Shown here: positions 3,315 through 54,367 of the stretch, piece by piece
How the letters are laid out: each line of letters opens with the position of its first letter
Position numbering within the stretch: position 1 is the stretch's first letter
From: Escherichia phage BF17
Sequence record: MW822008.1
Length of the DNA stretch: 64,000 nt
Reading direction: 5' to 3' (one strand)
The notes under the pieces: model-generated
Seen by the model: only the letters and a program-made list of their open reading frames with translations
What the model was told of the DNA's origin: nothing
Databases searched by the model: none
Translations under genes and position numbers: made by a program

Positions 3315-5456
3315 TTAAGATAGGGTGATATATGTTATTGGTTGAGCAGCTTTCAATAATGCCCCTGCTGCGGTAGCAGTAACAATCGGATCGGCAATAT
3401 CGATACGATACGCATTATTAACAACATAAACTGCTCTAGTGATATATGTTTTTAAATCTTCGCCGTTTTCCCCTGCTCCTGTGATTAGGATTTCGGTTCC
3501 AGCAGCTTTAGCATATTGATTTTCACCCCATGATACACCCAATGCTTCGATATAAGTTTGTCCTGCAACTGTTTGTCTAATTGTGTCATATCGACCAAAG
3601 AAAGAACCACCTACTGTAACAATAAATTTTCCACCTGATTGTTTATGGATAATTGTTCCTTCTGGGAAATATCTCCCACCAGGAAAAACATCATAAGGCA
3701 CGTAATACTGTTCAACTACAGGTATTACTACAGGTCCACGATGACCCGTTCCATCAATTGCAGTGGTTACTTTAAAGTTATTAGATGATTGGTCAATACG
3801 GTCAACATACATTCTTGAGAAACTATATTTTGATATGTTACAATCATCTTGAACAACACAATTAGTCCAGTTGGTATATGTATATTTAGAGCGAGTATAT
3901 AAGCCCCCTCCTTCACCTTCAGTTGCAAGGTGTTGTCCAATAACATCAAGTTCTTTAGTACTGATATTATTAAACTTGGAAGATGACGGCAATCCACGCC
4001 ATTGAATTCTACTACATGTAATATTAGAAAGTTCAGTAGTATTTAGCCAATTATCAGAGCCTGATGTATGCACAATAATAGACGACTCAGGAATGTGGAG
4101 ATTACATAATTTAAAGTTACGTGGAGGACCAGCAAATTTACCAGATGTTACACCCCAGTTAATAGAAACCATACGGTTAGTTACTGATGGATCATTTAAT
4201 AGATGTCCAGATAGGCCATCAATAATAAAATCAACAGAACCATAAGTAATTACACCAGCGGTTGTCAAACCAGTACCAATTGATACCAATGTCGATGGAT
4301 AAACTTCATTATTAAGAATTTTAAAGTCTTTACCCAATTCAACGTGAATACATTGACGAACATTGTATAAGCGGTTATTTTTTATAACGAATTTTTTTAC
4401 ATATTGTGAATCATCTGCATTCACATCATAAGGACCAGAACCAGCAACGCCGATACCAATACCCCAGTTTGAAAGAGGAATTGGTGCATCTGTACCATCT
4501 ACGTTTTCAATCAAGTTACCTTCTATTACAAAACCGTCTGGGTAATGTGAGTTGACTACGTTCAATTCAATTGCATCACCATATATATCATGGATGTGGT
4601 TGTATGAATAACGCCCAACTGTCATTTTCTCACCAGTGCCTTGCTGAAGAACACCGTACTTACATTGTGTCATTTCATTAAAGCAGAAGTCGATAGTACC
4701 TGATTCAGTCATACCTTGCATTAGAAATGCAGCAGTACTTGTAATATTAATAAATTTATTAAAATAAAATTTACCATTACCACCAAAGAATTTTAAATAA
4801 CATCCTGTTAATGTTGCTTGTTGGATTGTACTATTCAGTACTGATACCATTGTTCCACCGTTACCAGTGATTGTTCCACCAAACCATTGAATATCATTCA
4901 AATAAACAGCAGTTCTGATACGATAATTACCACCAGCTTGAATTTGGATTTGGTGTTCTTTTGCATAAACTGCACATGCGTTAACCGCCGCCGTGTCATC
5001 AGTGATGCCATCACCTTTTGCACCAAACTCTTCTGGAGTTATGTAAAACTGTGCCTGTTGGAGTGTTCCTCCAGTAATAAGTCCGATATAATCAGCACCG
5101 TTAACACTGGAAAGGACATTTTTATTAATGTATAATGATTTTACCCAAACATCATTTGTTTTTGCAAAGATATCAACAATACCCTCAGAATCAACTTGAA
5201 AATAAGTGTTGTTATTTTTACCAATGTCATTTGTTGGTGGAAGCACGCCAAATAAAGCATTTGGGTTATCTTCAAGATACCTAACGTTTACTGCGGAATC
5301 ATCGTCATTAGGAGTTCCCACCTTAACAGGTAGGAACGTTTCGCCTAAAAAGTCTTTGATTGCGACAGAATCGTTTACAAAATTAATAGAAGCACCACGT
5401 TTACCCAACTTAAATGTTGGCATCATGGTTCCTTCTAAATTGGAAAAAACTGCCAT
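3315..5456 (-). CDS. Tailspike protein with right-handed beta-helix / pectate-lyase-like domain (putative polysaccharide depolymerase), 713 aa
   Basis: ATG at 5454-5456 with RBS GAGGG; N-terminal MAVFSNLEGTM module; motif EEFGAKGDGITDDTAAV is the classic signature of pectate-lyase-fold tailspikes. Confidence 0.65.
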   Translation of the reverse strand: MAVFSNLEGTMMPTFKLGKRGASINFVNDSVAIKDFLGETFLPVKVGTPNDDDSAVNVRYLEDNPNALFGVLPPTNDIGKNNNTYFQVDSEGIVDIFAKTNDVWVKSLYINKNVLSSVNGADYIGLITGGTLQQAQFYITPEEFGAKGDGITDDTAAVNACAVYAKEHQIQIQAGGNYRIRTAVYLNDIQWFGGTITGNGGTMVSVLNSTIQQATLTGCYLKFFGGNGKFYFNKFINITSTAAFLMQGMTESGTIDFCFNEMTQCKYGVLQQGTGEKMTVGRYSYNHIHDIYGDAIELNVVNSHYPDGFVIEGNLIENVDGTDAPIPLSNWGIGIGVAGSGPYDVNADDSQYVKKFVIKNNRLYNVRQCIHVELGKDFKILNNEVYPSTLVSIGTGLTTAGVITYGSVDFIIDGLSGHLLNDPSVTNRMVSINWGVTSGKFAGPPRNFKLCNLHIPESSIIVHTSGSDNWLNTTELSNITCSRIQWRGLPSSSKFNNISTKELDVIGQHLATEGEGGGLYTRSKYTYTNWTNCVVQDDCNISKYSFSRMYVDRIDQSSNNFKVTTAIDGTGHRGPVVIPVVEQYYVPYDVFPGGRYFPEGTIIHKQSGGKFIVTVGGSFFGRYDTIRQTVAGQTYIEALGVSWGENQYAKAAGTEILITGAGENGEDLKTYITRAVYVVNNAYRIDIADPIVTATAAGALLKAAQPITYITLS

Positions 5457-12325: not shown

Positions 12326-12353
12326 TTGACAAACGCAAAGAATGTGATATAAT
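12326..12353 (+). promoter_or_regulatory. Sigma70-type (early) promoter for the ClpA-like gene
   Basis: TTGACA (12326-12331), 16-bp spacer, TGaTATAAT extended -10 (12345-12353). Confidence 0.6.
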
Positions 12354-12391
12354 GTTTATTAATTAGAGTGACTACTCATTTAGGAGAATAC

Positions 12392-48957: not shown

Positions 48958-48995
48958 ACATTTTAAAGCATTTTAATAATCAAATTTTTCAGTTC

Positions 48996-49003
48996 TATAA
49001 ATA
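48996..49003 (+). promoter_or_regulatory. T4-type late promoter TATAAATA for the major capsid gene
   Basis: Exact TATAAATA ~45 nt upstream of ATG 49048, inside the conserved block AAATTTTTCAGTTCTATAAATAATATCATACT. Confidence 0.55.
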
Positions 49004-49047
49004 ATATCATACTGAAAAACGAATATAACATCTTTAAGGAGATAATA

Positions 49048-50223
49048 ATGTCACAACTACTAAATGAATCCAAATGGGTAGCAGTTAAAGAGAAACTAGT
49101 TGAAGGTCTACAAGGTACTCGTAAGTCCGTAATGGAAACCGTACTTGATAACCATCGTAAACTAATGCTAAACGAATCTGCTACTTCTGGTGCAACCACC
49201 GCTGGTAACATCGCTACTCTAAACAAAGTGATTCTACCAATTATGCGTCGTGTTATGCCAACCGTAATCGCTAACGAAATCATCGGTGTTCAGCCAATGA
49301 CTGGCCCAGTTGGTCAGATCCACACCCTACGTGTTCAATATGCTGACAACGCTCCTGGTGTTATCGCTGGTGAAGAAATGCTTTCTCCATACAAAATCGC
49401 TAAGTCTTATACTGGTGACCTAAACGCAGACAACAGCAACCCACAAGCTGCTCCTACTAGCCAACTAGAAGGTACTATGGGTCGTCGCGTTAACATCCGT
49501 ATTCTACGTGAAACTGTTGAAGCGAAATCTCGTCGTCTATCTGCACGTTGGACTGTTGAATCTGCACAAGATGCACAATCCCAACATGGTATCGACGTTG
49601 AAGCTGAACTAATGGCTGCAATCGCTCAAGAAGTTACCGTTGAAATCGACCAAGAGCTACTAAGCCGTCTACGTGCACTACCTGGTGCTGCTGCTGTAAC
49701 TTATGACCAATCTAAAGTTACTGGTGTTGCGACCTTCGTTGGTGACGAGCACGCTGCTCTAGCTACCCTAATCAACCGTCAAGCGAACGAAGTTGCTCGT
49801 CGTACCAAACGTGGTGCTGCGAACTGGGCTGTTGTTTCTCCAACCGCTCTAACCATTCTACAGTCTGCAACTACTTCTAGTTTTGCACGTACTACTGAAG
49901 GTACTTTCGAAGCTCCAACTAACGTTAAATTTGTTGGTACTCTAAACAGCACCATGCGTATCTTCGTTGATACCTATGCAAGTGATGTTGAAGATATCCT
50001 AATTGGTTACAAAGGTAACGCTGAAACTGATGCTGGTGTGTTCTATTGCCCATACATCCCACTAATGGCTTCCGGTACTGTAATGGACCCTAACACTGGA
50101 GAACTCGTTACAACTTTCTTAACCAGATACGGGTATGTTCAGTTGACCGATAGCACCAGTTCACTAGGTAACGCTGCTGACTACTACAGTAAAATCGCTA
50201 TCAAAAACGTTACTTTCATGTAA
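49048..50223 (+). CDS. 23: Major capsid protein, gp23-like (HK97 fold), 391 aa
   Basis: Blocks VIANEIIGVQPM, VEAKSRRLSARWTVESAQD, EVARRTKRGAANW, GYKGNAETDAGVFYCPY and TRYG parallel T4 gp23 from memory; RBS AAGGAG; codon usage looks highly expressed. Confidence 0.9.
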   Translation: MSQLLNESKWVAVKEKLVEGLQGTRKSVMETVLDNHRKLMLNESATSGATTAGNIATLNKVILPIMRRVMPTVIANEIIGVQPMTGPVGQIHTLRVQYADNAPGVIAGEEMLSPYKIAKSYTGDLNADNSNPQAAPTSQLEGTMGRRVNIRILRETVEAKSRRLSARWTVESAQDAQSQHGIDVEAELMAAIAQEVTVEIDQELLSRLRALPGAAAVTYDQSKVTGVATFVGDEHAALATLINRQANEVARRTKRGAANWAVVSPTALTILQSATTSSFARTTEGTFEAPTNVKFVGTLNSTMRIFVDTYASDVEDILIGYKGNAETDAGVFYCPYIPLMASGTVMDPNTGELVTTFLTRYGYVQLTDSTSSLGNAADYYSKIAIKNVTFM

Positions 50224-50246
50224 TAATAAAGAATTTAAATATACTA

Positions 50247-50276
50247 GGGACTCTTCGGAGTCCCTTTTCTTTTTTC
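50247..50276 (+). terminator. Intrinsic terminator with UUCG tetraloop after the capsid gene
   Basis: GGGACTC-TTCG-GAGTCCC-TTTTCTTTTTT. Confidence 0.8.
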
Positions 50277-50287
50277 AGAAAAAAAGC

Positions 50288-50316
50288 TTGACAAGTAGAT
50301 TTTAATTATATATAAT
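50288..50316 (+). promoter_or_regulatory. Consensus sigma70 promoter
   Basis: TTGACA (50288-50293), 17-bp spacer, TATAAT (50311-50316). Confidence 0.65.
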
Positions 50317-50351
50317 TACCACATACCAAAAATCACAAAGAGACAAATAAA

Positions 50352-51458
50352 ATGCCAAAAGTAAGTATCGACAAAGAAAAATTCATTGAAGAGATGAACA
50401 ACAAGTATGGAGCATATGGTGAATTTGATTTCAGCACTTTAGTATTCAAAGCCAGTAAGACAACAGTTAAATGTAATAAATGCGGAAAAGAAAATACTAA
50501 ACCTGCACTACGTCACATTTCATGTACATGTTCTTCATGTTATTCAAACATGTCACAGCGTTCGAACAACGAAAAATTTATCAGCACGGTAGAAACTAAA
50601 TTTGGAAAAGATAAATTCAAATTTGATAAACTAAATTACATTAACGCTATAACAAAAGTAACCATACTCTGTACAGACGAAGAACATAACGATTACTTTG
50701 AAATTACACCAAACAAATTTCTTACTGGTAAGGGATGTCCTATATGTAATAAAAATGAAGCATACAGTACTGAAGAATTCGTAGAAAAAGTAAAAGAAAA
50801 TTATGGTGATTCATTAGATTTAACTAACACAGTATATGTAAATCAAAAAACTAAAGTAACTGTGTATTGTAAAGCGGGTAACCATGAATGGACAGTTGAT
50901 CCGAAAACTTTACTTGTTGGTAAAACTGGCTGCGGTACATGTTCTGGTAAAGGTGGAAGAAGCACTGAACGTTTCATTGAACTTGTGTCGCCTATCCATA
51001 ACCATAAGTATGATTATAGTTTGGTTGAATATACTATAAGCGAGAATTATGTTGATATTGTATGTCCAACTCATGGTGTTTTCTCCCAACAACCAAAAGC
51101 ACATATGGCTGGTAAAGGATGCCCATCATGTGGTGAATATGGATATCAGCCATCAAAACCTGGATATTTCTATGTTCAAAAACTAACTAATAAAGATAAG
51201 ACAGTGTACAAGTATGGAATCACTGGTGATATGAAACGCCGTGTAAATGAGCAAAGTCGTCATTCTGGTTTTGAACACACAGTACTGATAGAACGTTACT
51301 TTGAAGATGGAAATCAACCATTACTGTTGGAAAAGTTCATAAAGAAATACATTGAAAGTGGTGTTGTAAGTACTGAAGAGTTGCCATCAGGATTTACTGA
51401 AACTTTTGATGCTAAGTATCTTGAAAGTGTTTTAGAAATTGTAAATACTTTTAAGTAA
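50352..51458 (+). CDS. T5orf172 / GIY-YIG-like domain protein with N-terminal Cys-rich tandem repeats (putative homing-type nuclease), 368 aa
   Basis: C-terminal GYFYVQKLTNKDKTVYKYGITGDMKRRVNEQ fits the T5orf172 motif; N-terminal half has at least three repeats containing GKGCPxC / GKTGCGTC. Confidence 0.55.
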   Translation: MPKVSIDKEKFIEEMNNKYGAYGEFDFSTLVFKASKTTVKCNKCGKENTKPALRHISCTCSSCYSNMSQRSNNEKFISTVETKFGKDKFKFDKLNYINAITKVTILCTDEEHNDYFEITPNKFLTGKGCPICNKNEAYSTEEFVEKVKENYGDSLDLTNTVYVNQKTKVTVYCKAGNHEWTVDPKTLLVGKTGCGTCSGKGGRSTERFIELVSPIHNHKYDYSLVEYTISENYVDIVCPTHGVFSQQPKAHMAGKGCPSCGEYGYQPSKPGYFYVQKLTNKDKTVYKYGITGDMKRRVNEQSRHSGFEHTVLIERYFEDGNQPLLLEKFIKKYIESGVVSTEELPSGFTETFDAKYLESVLEIVNTFK

Positions 51459-51481
51459 ACAACCATAAGGAGTTGACACGG

Positions 51482-51832
51482 ATGTTAACTGTATACATTT
51501 TTAAGAAAGAAGAGTACTTAAAGAGTCAGTACTCAAAAATTGAGATTAACGTTCCATACGGGACTTTAGTTGGTTATGATGAAGCTAGTGAAACTTTGTA
51601 TTATAATGATGATAGACTGGACTATAGTATTGATTCATTTATTGAAGACATACTTAATAGTAACACTGAAGATATGTTGTATGAAGAATACTTAGATAAG
51701 TACAAAGAACGTATGTCAAAGTTACATGCTGATGCTCCAGTACTGAACATTTCAAAAACTCCTTCTGAATTCGAGCCACAAAACCCATTCCAACGCCTAA
51801 TTGATGCTGGGGTAAATTTCCGAATTACTTGA
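51482..51832 (+). CDS. Hypothetical protein (~116 aa)
   Basis: Start ATG 51482 with RBS TAAGGAG; the ORF-track start 51473 is a TTG inside the RBS region. Confidence 0.45.
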   Translation: MLTVYIFKKEEYLKSQYSKIEINVPYGTLVGYDEASETLYYNDDRLDYSIDSFIEDILNSNTEDMLYEEYLDKYKERMSKLHADAPVLNISKTPSEFEPQNPFQRLIDAGVNFRIT

Positions 51833-51871
51833 TTAATAAATATCTTCATATTACTGATGGAGATATTTTCT

Positions 51872-52180
51872 ATGTCACAGATATGTTATGTTATAGTAAA
51901 TGATGCATGGCCTGATTATGTTAAGATAGGATTTACCAGTAAATCTGAAATGACAGAACGTTTAAGGACATATCAAACTGCTACACCTTTTAGAGATTTT
52001 GTGGTATACCATGAAGTACACTTTGAAGATGCACGTTTAGCAGAGAAAGAAATTCACAAAAGACTAAAACAAATGAACGCAGTAAGGCAACCTAACACCG
52101 AGTGGTTCAAGATGCCTAAGAAGATAGCAGCGAACATCGTTGATTCTGTTCTTGACGATATGGAAAACGACTTGCTATAG
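51872..52180 (+). CDS. Small T5orf172 / GIY-YIG-like domain protein (~102 aa)
   Basis: YVIVNDAWPDYVKIGFTSKSEMTERLRTY fits the same motif; start ATG 51872 with RBS GGAG (ORF-track ATG 51857 lies inside that RBS). Confidence 0.5.
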   Translation: MSQICYVIVNDAWPDYVKIGFTSKSEMTERLRTYQTATPFRDFVVYHEVHFEDARLAEKEIHKRLKQMNAVRQPNTEWFKMPKKIAANIVDSVLDDMENDLL

Positions 52181-52221
52181 TAATAAATATAGTATATATT
52201 AATCATTAAAGGGATTTATAC

Positions 52222-53847
52222 ATGAGCATAAGTTTTAATAACCCACTGGATACTATGACTAGTACTGGTGCTAATGGATCTTTAGAACTAATAGTGCTTG
52301 GTGGTACACCAACTAATCCAAGACCTATTCGTTTTAATTCATCTTCTGTCATTTTACCAGTACAGGCATTGCCAGCAGGTGAGCAAGGTGCTATGGTATT
52401 TGATAGAAATGAGTTGGTGTTAAAATACCACAACGGGACAAGTTGGATTGCAGTATACGATACTGATACAATTCTTGAACCAATCCGTATTTCACTCGAT
52501 GAAGTGAACCGTAAACTGAATTTAAAAGTTGAAACAGTAACATATAGTAGTAGTGCTGTTCCAAGTGCGAGCATTAGTGGTACGAATTTAAATATCGTAT
52601 TCCCTACTCCATCAAGTAGCGGTAGTGGCCCAACAGGTCTTTACACTTCAATGAAGCCTGGTGCAATTACCCAGTACTCATTGACTTCTGGACAAACTGT
52701 TGCTAGTATTCGTGAACAGATGTCTGGAGTAACTAATGGTCAAAGTGGTCGTAATGGTACACAAGGTTCTCCGTGGAAAACTTCTGATGGTTGGTGTTTT
52801 GCTGATGGAATGTGGTGGCAATGGGTTGGTGAAAATGGTACAATCACTAAACAAGTTCCAAATCTTAACCAAGAAGCATACTTGAAAGGCATTACCACAT
52901 CAGGCGTAACTAAAACTGATAGTGTGATTGCAAGTAGTGCATCAATTAGTGGTACTGCGATATCAATTGCTCAACTTCCACCGCACTCATTTAGTTTCAG
53001 TGGAACTACTGGTGCTGCTGGTCGTCATGGTCATAGCCAAGCACTAAAAGGTATGGACAGAAGTGGTCTTAATGCGTTAACATCCAGTAACGACAACGGA
53101 ATCCCAACTGTAATTAATAACATTAACGAAGCACCTGATCACGTGCATAGTTTCAGTGGTTCTACGAATACTGTTGGTAGTGGTCAAGCACACAGCCACG
53201 GAATTAGCAATATTGACGTACCACACTTTAATGTGGCATACTTATATAACATTGCTGAGTCTAACGTTGCATTGAGTGAAAAAGTTGCAAACACCCGTTA
53301 TGTACTGAAAACTGGTGATACAATGTCTGGTTCATTGACTATTGCTAACAGTGCAACAATTCGTTCGAATGATACTTCATTAGTACTTTACTTCCGTAAC
53401 GCTACTAATGGTGAACGTGCAGCAATTTATCATAATTCATCTAACAATACATTACGTTTGAGAAGTAATGGTGGTTCTGAAGTTACAATTAACTCTTCTG
53501 GTGTACTTTATGCTCCATCAGTAACTGGTGCATCATTGTCTATTTCTGGAAACACAGCAACTGTTGCAAGTAAAAACATCGTCAGATCTATTAACGGTAA
53601 CAACGCTGATGCAAACGGTAACGTAACTTTAACACTGGGTGCTGTACAAGATGTTCGTTTAAGTAAAAGAACATCTACGCGAAGTGTTCCTGATTCTTCT
53701 TGGATCTATGCACCAGAAGGTGCTACGCTTGATGGGTTGTTTATTTCCGTAAATGGGAGTTCTGGTACACACGTTGAAGGTTATAGTTGGAGATATACAC
53801 AAAAATTAGTCAATGGTGTATGGACTAACGTAGTAGTGGAGTCTTAA
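52222..53847 (+). CDS. Tail fiber protein with His-x-His repeat region (541 aa)
   Basis: Repeats HSFSFSGTTGAAGRHGHSQA and HVHSFSGSTNTVGSGQAHSHG resemble HxH repeats of T-even fiber tips; beta-rich composition; RBS AAAGGGA. Confidence 0.6.
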   Translation: MSISFNNPLDTMTSTGANGSLELIVLGGTPTNPRPIRFNSSSVILPVQALPAGEQGAMVFDRNELVLKYHNGTSWIAVYDTDTILEPIRISLDEVNRKLNLKVETVTYSSSAVPSASISGTNLNIVFPTPSSSGSGPTGLYTSMKPGAITQYSLTSGQTVASIREQMSGVTNGQSGRNGTQGSPWKTSDGWCFADGMWWQWVGENGTITKQVPNLNQEAYLKGITTSGVTKTDSVIASSASISGTAISIAQLPPHSFSFSGTTGAAGRHGHSQALKGMDRSGLNALTSSNDNGIPTVINNINEAPDHVHSFSGSTNTVGSGQAHSHGISNIDVPHFNVAYLYNIAESNVALSEKVANTRYVLKTGDTMSGSLTIANSATIRSNDTSLVLYFRNATNGERAAIYHNSSNNTLRLRSNGGSEVTINSSGVLYAPSVTGASLSISGNTATVASKNIVRSINGNNADANGNVTLTLGAVQDVRLSKRTSTRSVPDSSWIYAPEGATLDGLFISVNGSSGTHVEGYSWRYTQKLVNGVWTNVVVES

Positions 53848-53848
53848 T

Positions 53849-54367
53849 ATGAAAACATATACACATTTCAAAAAATATATCCCAGTAGAAAAGAAACATG
53901 GAGATAATGTTCTTTATCTATTGTCAGATGAGGGTGCTGACTGGTATGATTGTCAAAACGAATTCAGACAAGATACTTTGAAAGTTCAGTACTCTGATGA
54001 TGGTTATATTGCACAAGCATCATATGATGTAACATTGTTAGTACCGTATGGATACAGTGTTTCTGAGTTGGAGCATGATGGTGATGAAGATGAAGTAGTT
54101 GGTAAAATCTATGATGGAAGTAAAATTTCTGATTATGTTGAATCTACTGATGAAAAGATCAAACGTCTATCATCTGAGCACCAAGAATTAAGAACCGTAG
54201 CAATTAATGAGTTGAATAACATTAAGATGGCGATAGATCTTGAGGTAGCAACTGATTATGAAATAGAACTGTTTCCTAAGTTGAAAGCATATGTTCTTGA
54301 GCTATCATCTCTAACAACATCTGAATTTAGTAAGAAGAAGTTTTCGTTCCCTGTTAAACCTGTTTAA
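53849..54367 (+). CDS. Putative tail fiber assembly chaperone (172 aa)
   Basis: Immediately follows the fiber gene with a 1-nt gap; size and acidic composition fit Tfa-type chaperones; RBS GTGGAG. Confidence 0.4.
   Translation: MKTYTHFKKYIPVEKKHGDNVLYLLSDEGADWYDCQNEFRQDTLKVQYSDDGYIAQASYDVTLLVPYGYSVSELEHDGDEDEVVGKIYDGSKISDYVESTDEKIKRLSSEHQELRTVAINELNNIKMAIDLEVATDYEIELFPKLKAYVLELSSLTTSEFSKKKFSFPVKPV

Follow-up and report, generated by a model that had tools for sequence, protein, structure and literature searches.

The locus described here lies in a 64,000-nucleotide stretch of the genome of Escherichia phage BF17 (record MW822008.1; referred to below, at its full length, as the window), where a σ70-type promoter and an open reading frame (ORF) for a 368-residue protein of endonuclease type are located directly behind the major capsid gene. 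The source phage is an Asteriusvirus-type (121Q/PBECO4-like, Rak2-like) jumbo phage of Escherichia coli. The 5.9-kb region around the locus matched 72 phage records, with WPEC3 and vB_Ec-M-J at the top (95-96 % identity). The gene order, with the features from the capsid 3' end to the tail-fibre assembly gene on the plus strand, is prohead protease, scaffold, gp23-type major capsid protein, terminator, promoter, 368-residue ORF, 116-residue ORF, 102-residue ORF, tail fibre, tail-fibre assembly protein, a small regulator-like gene, and DNA polymerase. The capsid gene (49048-50223; Pfam Gp23, E = 9.5e-90) is followed, 23 nt past its stop codon, by an intrinsic terminator (50246-50265; an 8-bp stem with five G-C pairs, and a T-run), which is present in all relatives, as judged by alignments. 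The promoter occupies positions 50288-50316 and the 368-residue ORF, which matches PHROG 681, positions 50352-51458; its product is 100 % identical to a protein recorded under Escherichia phage BF17. The features named in the initial annotation (the promoter, the 368-residue ORF and its motifs, a small T5orf172 ORF, and the terminator) were all found where they had been placed. Rfam and tRNA scans of the region produced no hits.

Occupants of the slot behind the capsid gene

The promoter and the 368-residue gene are missing from fEgEco12, whose flanks are 98-100 % identical to those of the window, and from PBECO4; the gene is also absent from CMSTMSU. In the empty sites of fEgEco12 and PBECO4, ca. 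45 nt of unrelated intergenic sequence separate the terminator from the start codon of the following gene. The boundaries of the cassette are therefore sharp, the T-run of the terminator on the left and the ATG of the next gene, which codes for the 116-residue protein, on the right, and the capsid terminator is the left border of a variable slot. The possibility that the empty sites are deletion derivatives was considered unlikely: the ca. 45-nt intergenic sequence of fEgEco12 and PBECO4 is their own, includes a ribosome-binding site, and is unrelated to the ends of the cassette.

When occupied, the slot does not always hold the same gene. An allele of 365-368 residues with four N-terminal repeats (R1-R4, see below) is present in 12 phages. 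A 3-repeat allele of 300-307 residues, without R1, is found in Ecwhy_1, WPEC5, slurp01, and EC.P1, and a T5orf172 allele of 332 residues in TH47, SHEFM2K, and JNE01. Turkey5 carries a 406-residue allele with CapR, DUF723, and T5orf172 (MUG113) domains, while in ph0011 the slot is taken by an unrelated 532-residue gene (PHROG 3339, "homing endonuclease"; Pfam DUF7487). We conclude that the slot is a hotspot, at which at least five different endonuclease-type genes have arrived independently. The 368-residue gene is not universal at this locus, and its presence or absence among close relatives, together with a host-type promoter of its own, bears out its earlier description as a homing-type selfish gene adjoining a conserved head gene. 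In SE_PL, an additional 207-residue ORF without a PHROG match (locus L012, 6542-7165) is located between a 373-residue endonuclease gene and the homologue of the 116-residue gene.

The promoter at 50288 (TTGACA-N17-TATAAT) matches the σ70 consensus at 12 of 12 positions and is the only such match within 46-58 kb. It had been called the best σ70 promoter of the window; the match is indeed perfect, but the rank is shared, as there are two perfect matches in the window as a whole. The other one, at 12326-12354, has the form TTGACA-N16-TATAAT and contains a TG extended -10 element. Promoters matching the consensus at 11 or 12 of 12 positions precede all 4-repeat, 3-repeat, and 406-residue alleles, 28-35 nt before the ATG, while the top σ70 match in empty sites reaches only 8 of 12. 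From the match to the consensus, we infer that the element at 50288 is a promoter belonging to the endonuclease cassette. The idea that a native promoter motif was lost upon insertion was dropped, since the empty-site sequence TCTAAATAC occurs once in the window versus 0.9 occurrences expected, and CTAAATA likewise showed no enrichment. Terminator and promoter overlap in four phages, Turkey5, Munch, SE_PL, and fENko-Kae01: the hairpin of their capsid terminator, GGGACTC-TTGACG-AGTCCC (positions 1526-1639 of the Turkey5 locus, L020, and about 5226-5340 of loci L011, L012, and L013), has the -35 box of the endonuclease promoter (TTGACG) as its loop.

The 368-residue protein

The 368-residue protein consists of two parts. 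Its Cys-rich half is made of four tandem repeats of ca. 65 residues each, R1 (residues 5-68), R2 (69-136), R3 (137-202), and R4 (203-265), encoded at 50364-50555, 50556-50759, 50760-50957, and 50958-51146, respectively (50364-51146 for the entire array), and includes the motifs GKGCPIC, GKTGCGTC, and GKGCPSC. The zinc-site ligands are CCCC in R1 and CHCC in each of R2-R4, and the Cys ligands of R2-R4 are invariant across 41 homologues. Each repeat is modelled as a helix, a β-hairpin, and a short helix. The four repeats are presumed to be zinc fingers of the CapR/DUF723/DUF4379 type that form a DNA-recognition array. The C-terminal domain of ca. 100 residues (residues 268-368, encoded at 51153-51455) bears the T5orf172 motifs GYFYVQK, VYKYGIT, and RRVNEQ. 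This layout had been considered unusual. It is in fact the typical one: one or more zinc-finger domains of the CapR/DUF723/DUF4379 type are found in 87 % of T5orf172 homing endonuclease genes, often several per gene, and the number of repeats shifts through recombination (PMC10448857).

The family assignment follows from three lines of evidence: a match to PHROG 681 "endonuclease" (E = 1.6e-77), a Pfam scan of the homologues, and a match of the modelled C-terminal domain to the GIY-YIG fold. Taken alone, the protein speaks against the assignment, as it falls below the Pfam cut-offs for T5orf172 (17.8 versus 20 bits), MUG113 (13.8 versus 22.3), DUF4379 (23.9 versus 24.5), and DUF723 (19.1 versus 20.9). 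Among the 41 homologues, with matches counted at E <= 0.01, DUF4379 was detected in 33, MUG113 in 19, T5orf172 in 18, DUF723 in 17, and CapR in nine; the best E values were 2.6e-9 for T5orf172 and 6.8e-12 for MUG113. With such matches at the level of the family, the sub-threshold scores of the 368-residue protein are a sensitivity shortfall of one sequence. The structure model of the 368-residue protein has a predicted local distance difference test score (pLDDT) of 86.6 and a predicted template modelling score (pTM) of 0.38; a low pTM is expected, because the domains fold independently, like beads. Sequence searches of solved structures with the 368- and 102-residue proteins gave no meaningful match, NCBIfam gave no hits for the 368-, 116-, or 102-residue proteins, and PADLOC gave no meaningful match to the 368-residue protein. 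No paralogues of either the 368-residue endonuclease or the 102-residue nuclease were found elsewhere in the window.

Residues Y274, K287, G289, R297, and E350 are invariant in the 41 homologues, and the last four of them align with K18, G20, R30, and E77 of the small T5orf172 family. Judging by the order of motifs rather than by superposition, E350 would be equivalent to E75 of I-TevI and E180 of Odn. Odn, a T5orf172 nuclease of phage ICP1, cleaves DNA in vitro and needs its conserved glutamate for that (E180A is inactive; PMC8263062). The ratio of nonsynonymous to synonymous substitution rates (dN/dS, ω) is ca. 0.1 in both halves of the 368-residue gene and 0.07-0.15 in the nuclease half. 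We conclude that the protein is maintained by selection and looks functional; DNA cleavage by it is predicted.

Mosaic structure and the synonymous capsid haplotype

Gene-by-gene and sliding-window identities assign the backbone of the window to the fEgEco12/WPEC3/Ecwhy_1 clade. The scaffold, 116-residue, and 102-residue genes and polB are 98-100 % identical to the fEgEco12/WPEC3 clade and 77-89 % identical to phage A4, while the promoter and R1-R4 are 97-100 % identical to A4. Compared with fEgEco12, the window has no mismatches in the 1140 nt at 48960-50099 and four in the 749 nt at 51482-52230. Compared with A4, it has three mismatches at 50083-50923, whereas the backbone of A4 itself is 6 % divergent from the window upstream and 20 % divergent downstream. 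The distribution of mismatches to A4 and fEgEco12 delimits an A4-like recombinant patch of ca. 1.17 kb (approximately 50083-51267), which comprises the 3' end of the capsid gene, the terminator, the promoter, the zinc-finger array, and the initial third of the nuclease domain. Its left junction, at 50083-50099, is inside the capsid gene, and its right junction, at ca. 51228-51311, is inside the T5orf172 coding part. At 51312-51481, there is one mismatch to WPEC3, and the sequence is back to the resident allele of its own clade. Thus, in the window, the 3' end of the nuclease gene is resident, while the capsid 3' end, the terminator region, the promoter, and the DNA-binding array fused to it are imported.

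Since the cassette and its flanks differ in history, we conclude that a recent lateral replacement from a distantly related, A4-like donor occurred, and, given a right crossover within the conserved sequence that codes for the nuclease, the recipient is likely to have had a related endonuclease allele beforehand. T5orf172 homing endonuclease genes are known to mark recombination boundaries, and in the window, as in the cases described by Barth et al., a nuclease gene is found at the boundary of the exchange (PMC10448857). At the R3/R4 junction (50924-50990), a mini-patch of 12 mismatches to A4 is present, in which the window resembles vB_Ec-M-J and UB; the repeat array is therefore itself a mosaic.

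The capsid end of the patch coincides with a stretch of high synonymous diversity. Among 18 phages, mean pairwise diversity at 50095-50180 is 0.19 versus 0.046 upstream, a 4.1-fold increase and the maximum of all 86-nt sliding windows. Third-position diversity in this stretch is up to 0.48, and at least six haplotypes are present, yet the last 110 capsid residues show no amino-acid change. From 50100 to 50166, the window has 18 differences from fEgEco12. Four comparisons between phages with matching backbones (window/fEgEco12, WPEC3/fEgEco12, 121Q/PBECO4, and UB/slurp01) gave 0-2 capsid differences per 60 nt up to 49947. At 50068-50187, there were 16-19 differences in all four pairs, every one of them synonymous. 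An unrelated patch of 10-12 differences was seen at 49948-50007 in two of the four pairs (WPEC3/fEgEco12 and 121Q/PBECO4).

One haplotype of the stretch is linked to the 4-repeat allele. The 12 carriers of the full-length 4-repeat allele are exactly the 12 phages closest to the window over these positions (at least 83.7 %, versus at most 80.2 % for the others), and the 50100-50166 haplotype is found in 12/12 of them and in no other phage, whatever the backbone clade. In two own-clade pairs, the gene downstream of the slot shows no linked patch, and the tract linked to the endonuclease gene is therefore one-sided. One-sidedness would be expected if the enzyme cut in or near the stretch and repair then copied everything from the cut to the gene. 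The stretch at 50095-50180 is regarded as a candidate for the region that the 4-repeat endonuclease recognises or cleaves or, alternatively, for an obligatory co-conversion tract.

Several further features of the capsid gene were observed. A second purely synonymous cluster, at 49948-50013, contains 10-14 differences per 60 nt in some pairs and does not track the slot occupant; it may represent the far ends of older conversion tracts. Directly after the stretch with a diversity of 0.19, the region at 50181-50265, which comprises the final 43 nt of the capsid gene plus the hairpin of the terminator, is near-invariant in all relatives, with a diversity of 0.029. The sharp switch at 50181 could reflect a homology anchor that is re-copied in each event, a constraint on RNA, or a shared recognition element. 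In the same phage pairs, synonymous divergence (dS) of the capsid gene (49048-50223) is 0.23-0.39 versus 1-3 for the two small downstream genes (51482-52180), which points to a constraint on codons, or to frequent homogenisation, in the capsid gene. A bolder reading, which we consider unlikely though conceivable, is that the 86-nt stretch at 50095-50180 is a battleground of a multi-allele arms race, where the zinc-finger array of each allele would read a different synonymous haplotype, and the enzyme would be retargeted whenever a single repeat was gained, lost, or swapped. If this were true, natural pairs of arrays and haplotypes could yield a recognition code for zinc-finger repeats of the CapR/DUF723 type.

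Proposed homing and its alternatives

Based on the anatomy of the cassette, the polymorphism of the slot, and the association with a capsid haplotype, we propose that the segment at 50270-51481 is probably a free-standing homing-endonuclease gene cassette, made of a σ70 promoter and one gene. The gene would be expressed early from its host-type promoter; the four N-terminal zinc-finger repeats of the product would read a DNA site, and its C-terminal T5orf172 (GIY-YIG-type) domain would cut the DNA. Its most likely substrates would be the genomes of co-infecting relatives without this allele, cut at or close to the capsid 3' stretch at ca. 50100-50170, and recombinational repair from the carrier genome would transfer both the cassette and the 3' end of the capsid gene. 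The capsid allele of the carrier itself, recoded at synonymous sites only, would resist cutting. Such an event, or recombination via the same homologies, has swapped ca. 1.17 kb of the window for A4-like donor sequence.

A number of observations weigh against this scheme. The 3-repeat alleles are found with the capsid haplotype of empty-site phages, and the 332-residue allele is found on three capsid haplotypes; with no fixed haplotype for these alleles, the variable stretch may be a hitch-hiking tract rather than a target. Strong constraint on the capsid protein would render any imported divergence synonymous. The phages of the census are related, so the 12/12 association counts lineages and not 12 independent events. 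Finally, the position of the right crossover in the nuclease-coding part fits ordinary recombination between two carriers equally well.

The same observations bear on the alternative that survives best, although we consider it quite unlikely, namely that the nuclease of the 368-residue gene is inactive or irrelevant and the gene an accessory one, moved only by ordinary homologous recombination during co-infection, the capsid haplotype being a matter of linkage. Such recombination would account for both breakpoints being in sequence common to donor and recipient, for 3-repeat and 332-residue alleles without a fixed haplotype, and for a synonymous hot spot at ca. 49960-50013 that is indifferent to the slot occupant. 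It would not explain why at least five different endonuclease-type genes independently entered one intergenic slot, why the 4.1-fold rise in diversity is exactly beside that slot, with linked differences confined to the capsid side in the two own-clade pairs, or why catalytic motifs and reading frame were kept.

It is very unlikely that the nuclease is mainly a weapon against competitors or satellites, as is ICP1 Odn, or an excluder of related phages, with the spread of the gene as a by-product. Recruitment of T5orf172 nucleases to anti-satellite defence is on record (PMC8263062), an early σ70 promoter would suit an attack on co-infecting DNA, and the 102-residue T5orf172 protein has a domain in common with the PADLOC family PDC-S57. 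Yet Pfam scans detected no RepA_N-type or other satellite-derived targeting domain, PADLOC returned nothing meaningful for the 368-residue protein, and replacement of alleles at the gene's own locus is a signature of homing. Least probable of all is a domesticated, non-cutting DNA-binding regulator that, like satellite CapR, would control expression around the capsid and tail-fibre genes: the CapR domain is detected in nine of the 41 homologues, CapR is related to T5orf172 homing endonucleases and described as domesticated from them (PMC10448857; 10.1101/2020.11.28.402263), and the gene is directly behind the capsid gene and ahead of late genes, but Y274, R297, and E350 do not vary, purifying selection acts on the nuclease half (ω of 0.07-0.15, as above), and the gene is dispensable (absent from close relatives) and replaceable by unrelated endonuclease genes, while a regulator of essential late genes is not expected to be sporadic.

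The cassette belongs to a described family of homing-endonuclease-type genes, newly documented here in this phage lineage. SegG of phage T4, of the Seg family, is reportedly a free-standing, intergenic GIY-YIG gene beside an essential gene, and is said to cut away from its insertion point, inside the neighbouring gene, so that flanking markers are co-converted one way. Seg proteins have an N-terminal GIY-YIG domain and other DNA-binding modules. Like SegG, the 368-residue gene is free-standing beside an essential gene; by analogy, its product too may cleave at a distance, with one-way co-conversion of the flank. Unlike Seg proteins, its product has a C-terminal domain of the T5orf172 sub-type and a zinc-finger array. 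This architecture, a C-terminal T5orf172 domain preceded by a CapR/DUF723/DUF4379 array, is that of the T5orf172 homing endonucleases of ICP1, T5-like, and Vibrio phages (Barth, Dunham and Seed 2023, PMC10448857). The likeness extends to a repeat number that varies by allele, to swapping of DNA-binding and nuclease parts by recombination, and to the capsid neighbour, a capsid gene being present in 31 % of the neighbourhoods of such genes in that study. The differences are that the 121Q-like jumbo coliphages are not mentioned in the main text of that paper, and that here one slot accommodates at least five alternative alleles, one of them tied to a defined synonymous capsid haplotype, which therefore provides a concrete candidate target. 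With ICP1 Odn (Gp88), the 368-residue protein shares a T5orf172 domain with conserved Arg and Glu; Odn targets a satellite replication origin via a RepA_N-like domain (PMC8263062), while the 368-residue protein has zinc-finger repeats and population genetics of the homing type.

Current views are thus extended to a new phage lineage, not overturned. For T5orf172 homing endonucleases, few of whose targets are known, the locus is an unusually clean natural experiment: it offers near-identical empty-site sisters, several alternative alleles for one slot, and a dated-looking replacement whose breakpoints are placed to within tens of bases. Together with a candidate target that is short, purely synonymous, and part of an essential gene, these features make target mapping, as well as immunity by synonymous recoding, directly testable. 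The slot is two genes away from the tail fibre, a host-range determinant, and nuclease-driven recombination could affect the exchange of host-range modules among therapeutic jumbo coliphages.

The 116- and 102-residue genes and the tail fibre

The 116-residue gene (51482-51832, from the ATG; phrog_15724, E = 3e-53), omitted from the initial annotation, is located between the two T5orf172 genes. It has no Pfam hit, is 99-100 % identical to its own clade, and shows no endonuclease-linked patch; it is the right border of the slot and is outside the mobile element. The small T5orf172 ORF that follows it was correctly placed in that annotation: the conserved start is the ATG at 51872 (51872-52180, 102 residues) and not 51857. 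The 116-residue gene always precedes the 102-residue one, and the two stand directly before the tail-fibre gene in all relatives, including the Salmonella phages Munch and SE_PL and the Klebsiella phage fENko-Kae01. The 116-residue protein could be a partner of the 102-residue protein.

The 102-residue protein scores above the Pfam cut-off for T5orf172 (E = 3e-13; 50.6 bits, cut-off 20) and matches MUG113 (E = 1e-12). It has a GIY-YIG fold, with SLX1 and HIGLE as the best fold matches, which may merely reflect the common GIY-YIG core. Its homologues form 25 clusters, all within this phage group, with lengths of 100-108 residues and at least 63 % identity, and none has a domain besides the nuclease; Y6, K18, G20, R30, and E77 are invariant. 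The gene was at the locus in 21 of the 21 relatives fetched, Salmonella and Klebsiella phages included, with any slot occupant, and its dN/dS is 0.02-0.06. The gene is neither sporadic nor equipped with a DNA-targeting domain in addition to the nuclease, both of which would be expected of a mobile homing endonuclease gene. The grouping of two T5orf172 genes in one islet is therefore refuted: the 102-residue gene is universal at the locus, under strong purifying selection, and preceded by a motif of its own, and we conclude that the 102- and 116-residue genes are fixed core genes and not a mobile piece.

The motif in question, ATAAATA (51836-51842), has been put forward as a late promoter for the related phage CBB (PMC5259590), and in the window also precedes the scaffold (47788), capsid (48997), and tail-fibre (52183) genes. 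The sequence TAATAAATA is not enriched window-wide (four occurrences versus 2.5 expected), and the argument therefore rests on position before late genes and on the CBB paper. By position, we infer that the 102-residue gene has a late-type promoter motif of its own.

The orthologue of the 102-residue gene in Ecwhy_1 is Ecwhy1_173 (QAY00453.1), one of the two conserved Uri/T5orf172 endonucleases of group 2.2 jumbo phages, which was proposed to be Holliday-junction-resolvase-like (Iyer et al. 2021, PMC7824862). The gene was thus already known as a core gene, and the product is most likely a DNA-processing nuclease, Holliday-junction-resolvase-like according to that literature. There is no material difference from the published endonuclease (PMC7824862); the late-type motif, purifying selection, and the SLX1/HIGLE matches are added here. 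Some records label the 102-residue gene "homing endonuclease", and annotation of this phage group should part the mobile 368-residue gene from the fixed 102-residue nuclease. The 102-residue protein also matches the PADLOC candidate defence family PDC-S57 (1.9e-15), through the N-terminal T5orf172 domain of those 212-residue proteins only; the match was not accepted as evidence of a role in defence, as the domain is all they have in common.

The tail-fibre gene (52222-53847; phrog_13229, E = 1e-249) and the tail-fibre assembly (chaperone) gene (53849-54367; Caudo_TAP, E = 6e-9) had been described as extra, and the entire 50.3-54.4 kb block as a single exchange module. Both genes are syntenic in all relatives and hence not extra. 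The region from 51482 to ca. 53000 follows the backbone, being 98-100 % identical to the window's own clade, and therefore the single module was rejected in favour of two independent zones of mosaicism, one at the endonuclease slot and the other at the C-terminus of the fibre and the chaperone. The N-terminal part of the fibre is 98-99 % identical to the window's own clade. In the second zone (53001-54367), which is exchanged among close relatives, Turkey3 and WPEC5 have a different fibre C-terminus and chaperone region; these two phages and Turkey5 have a fibre of 569-572 residues and no separate assembly gene. Phage A4 has two chaperone genes.

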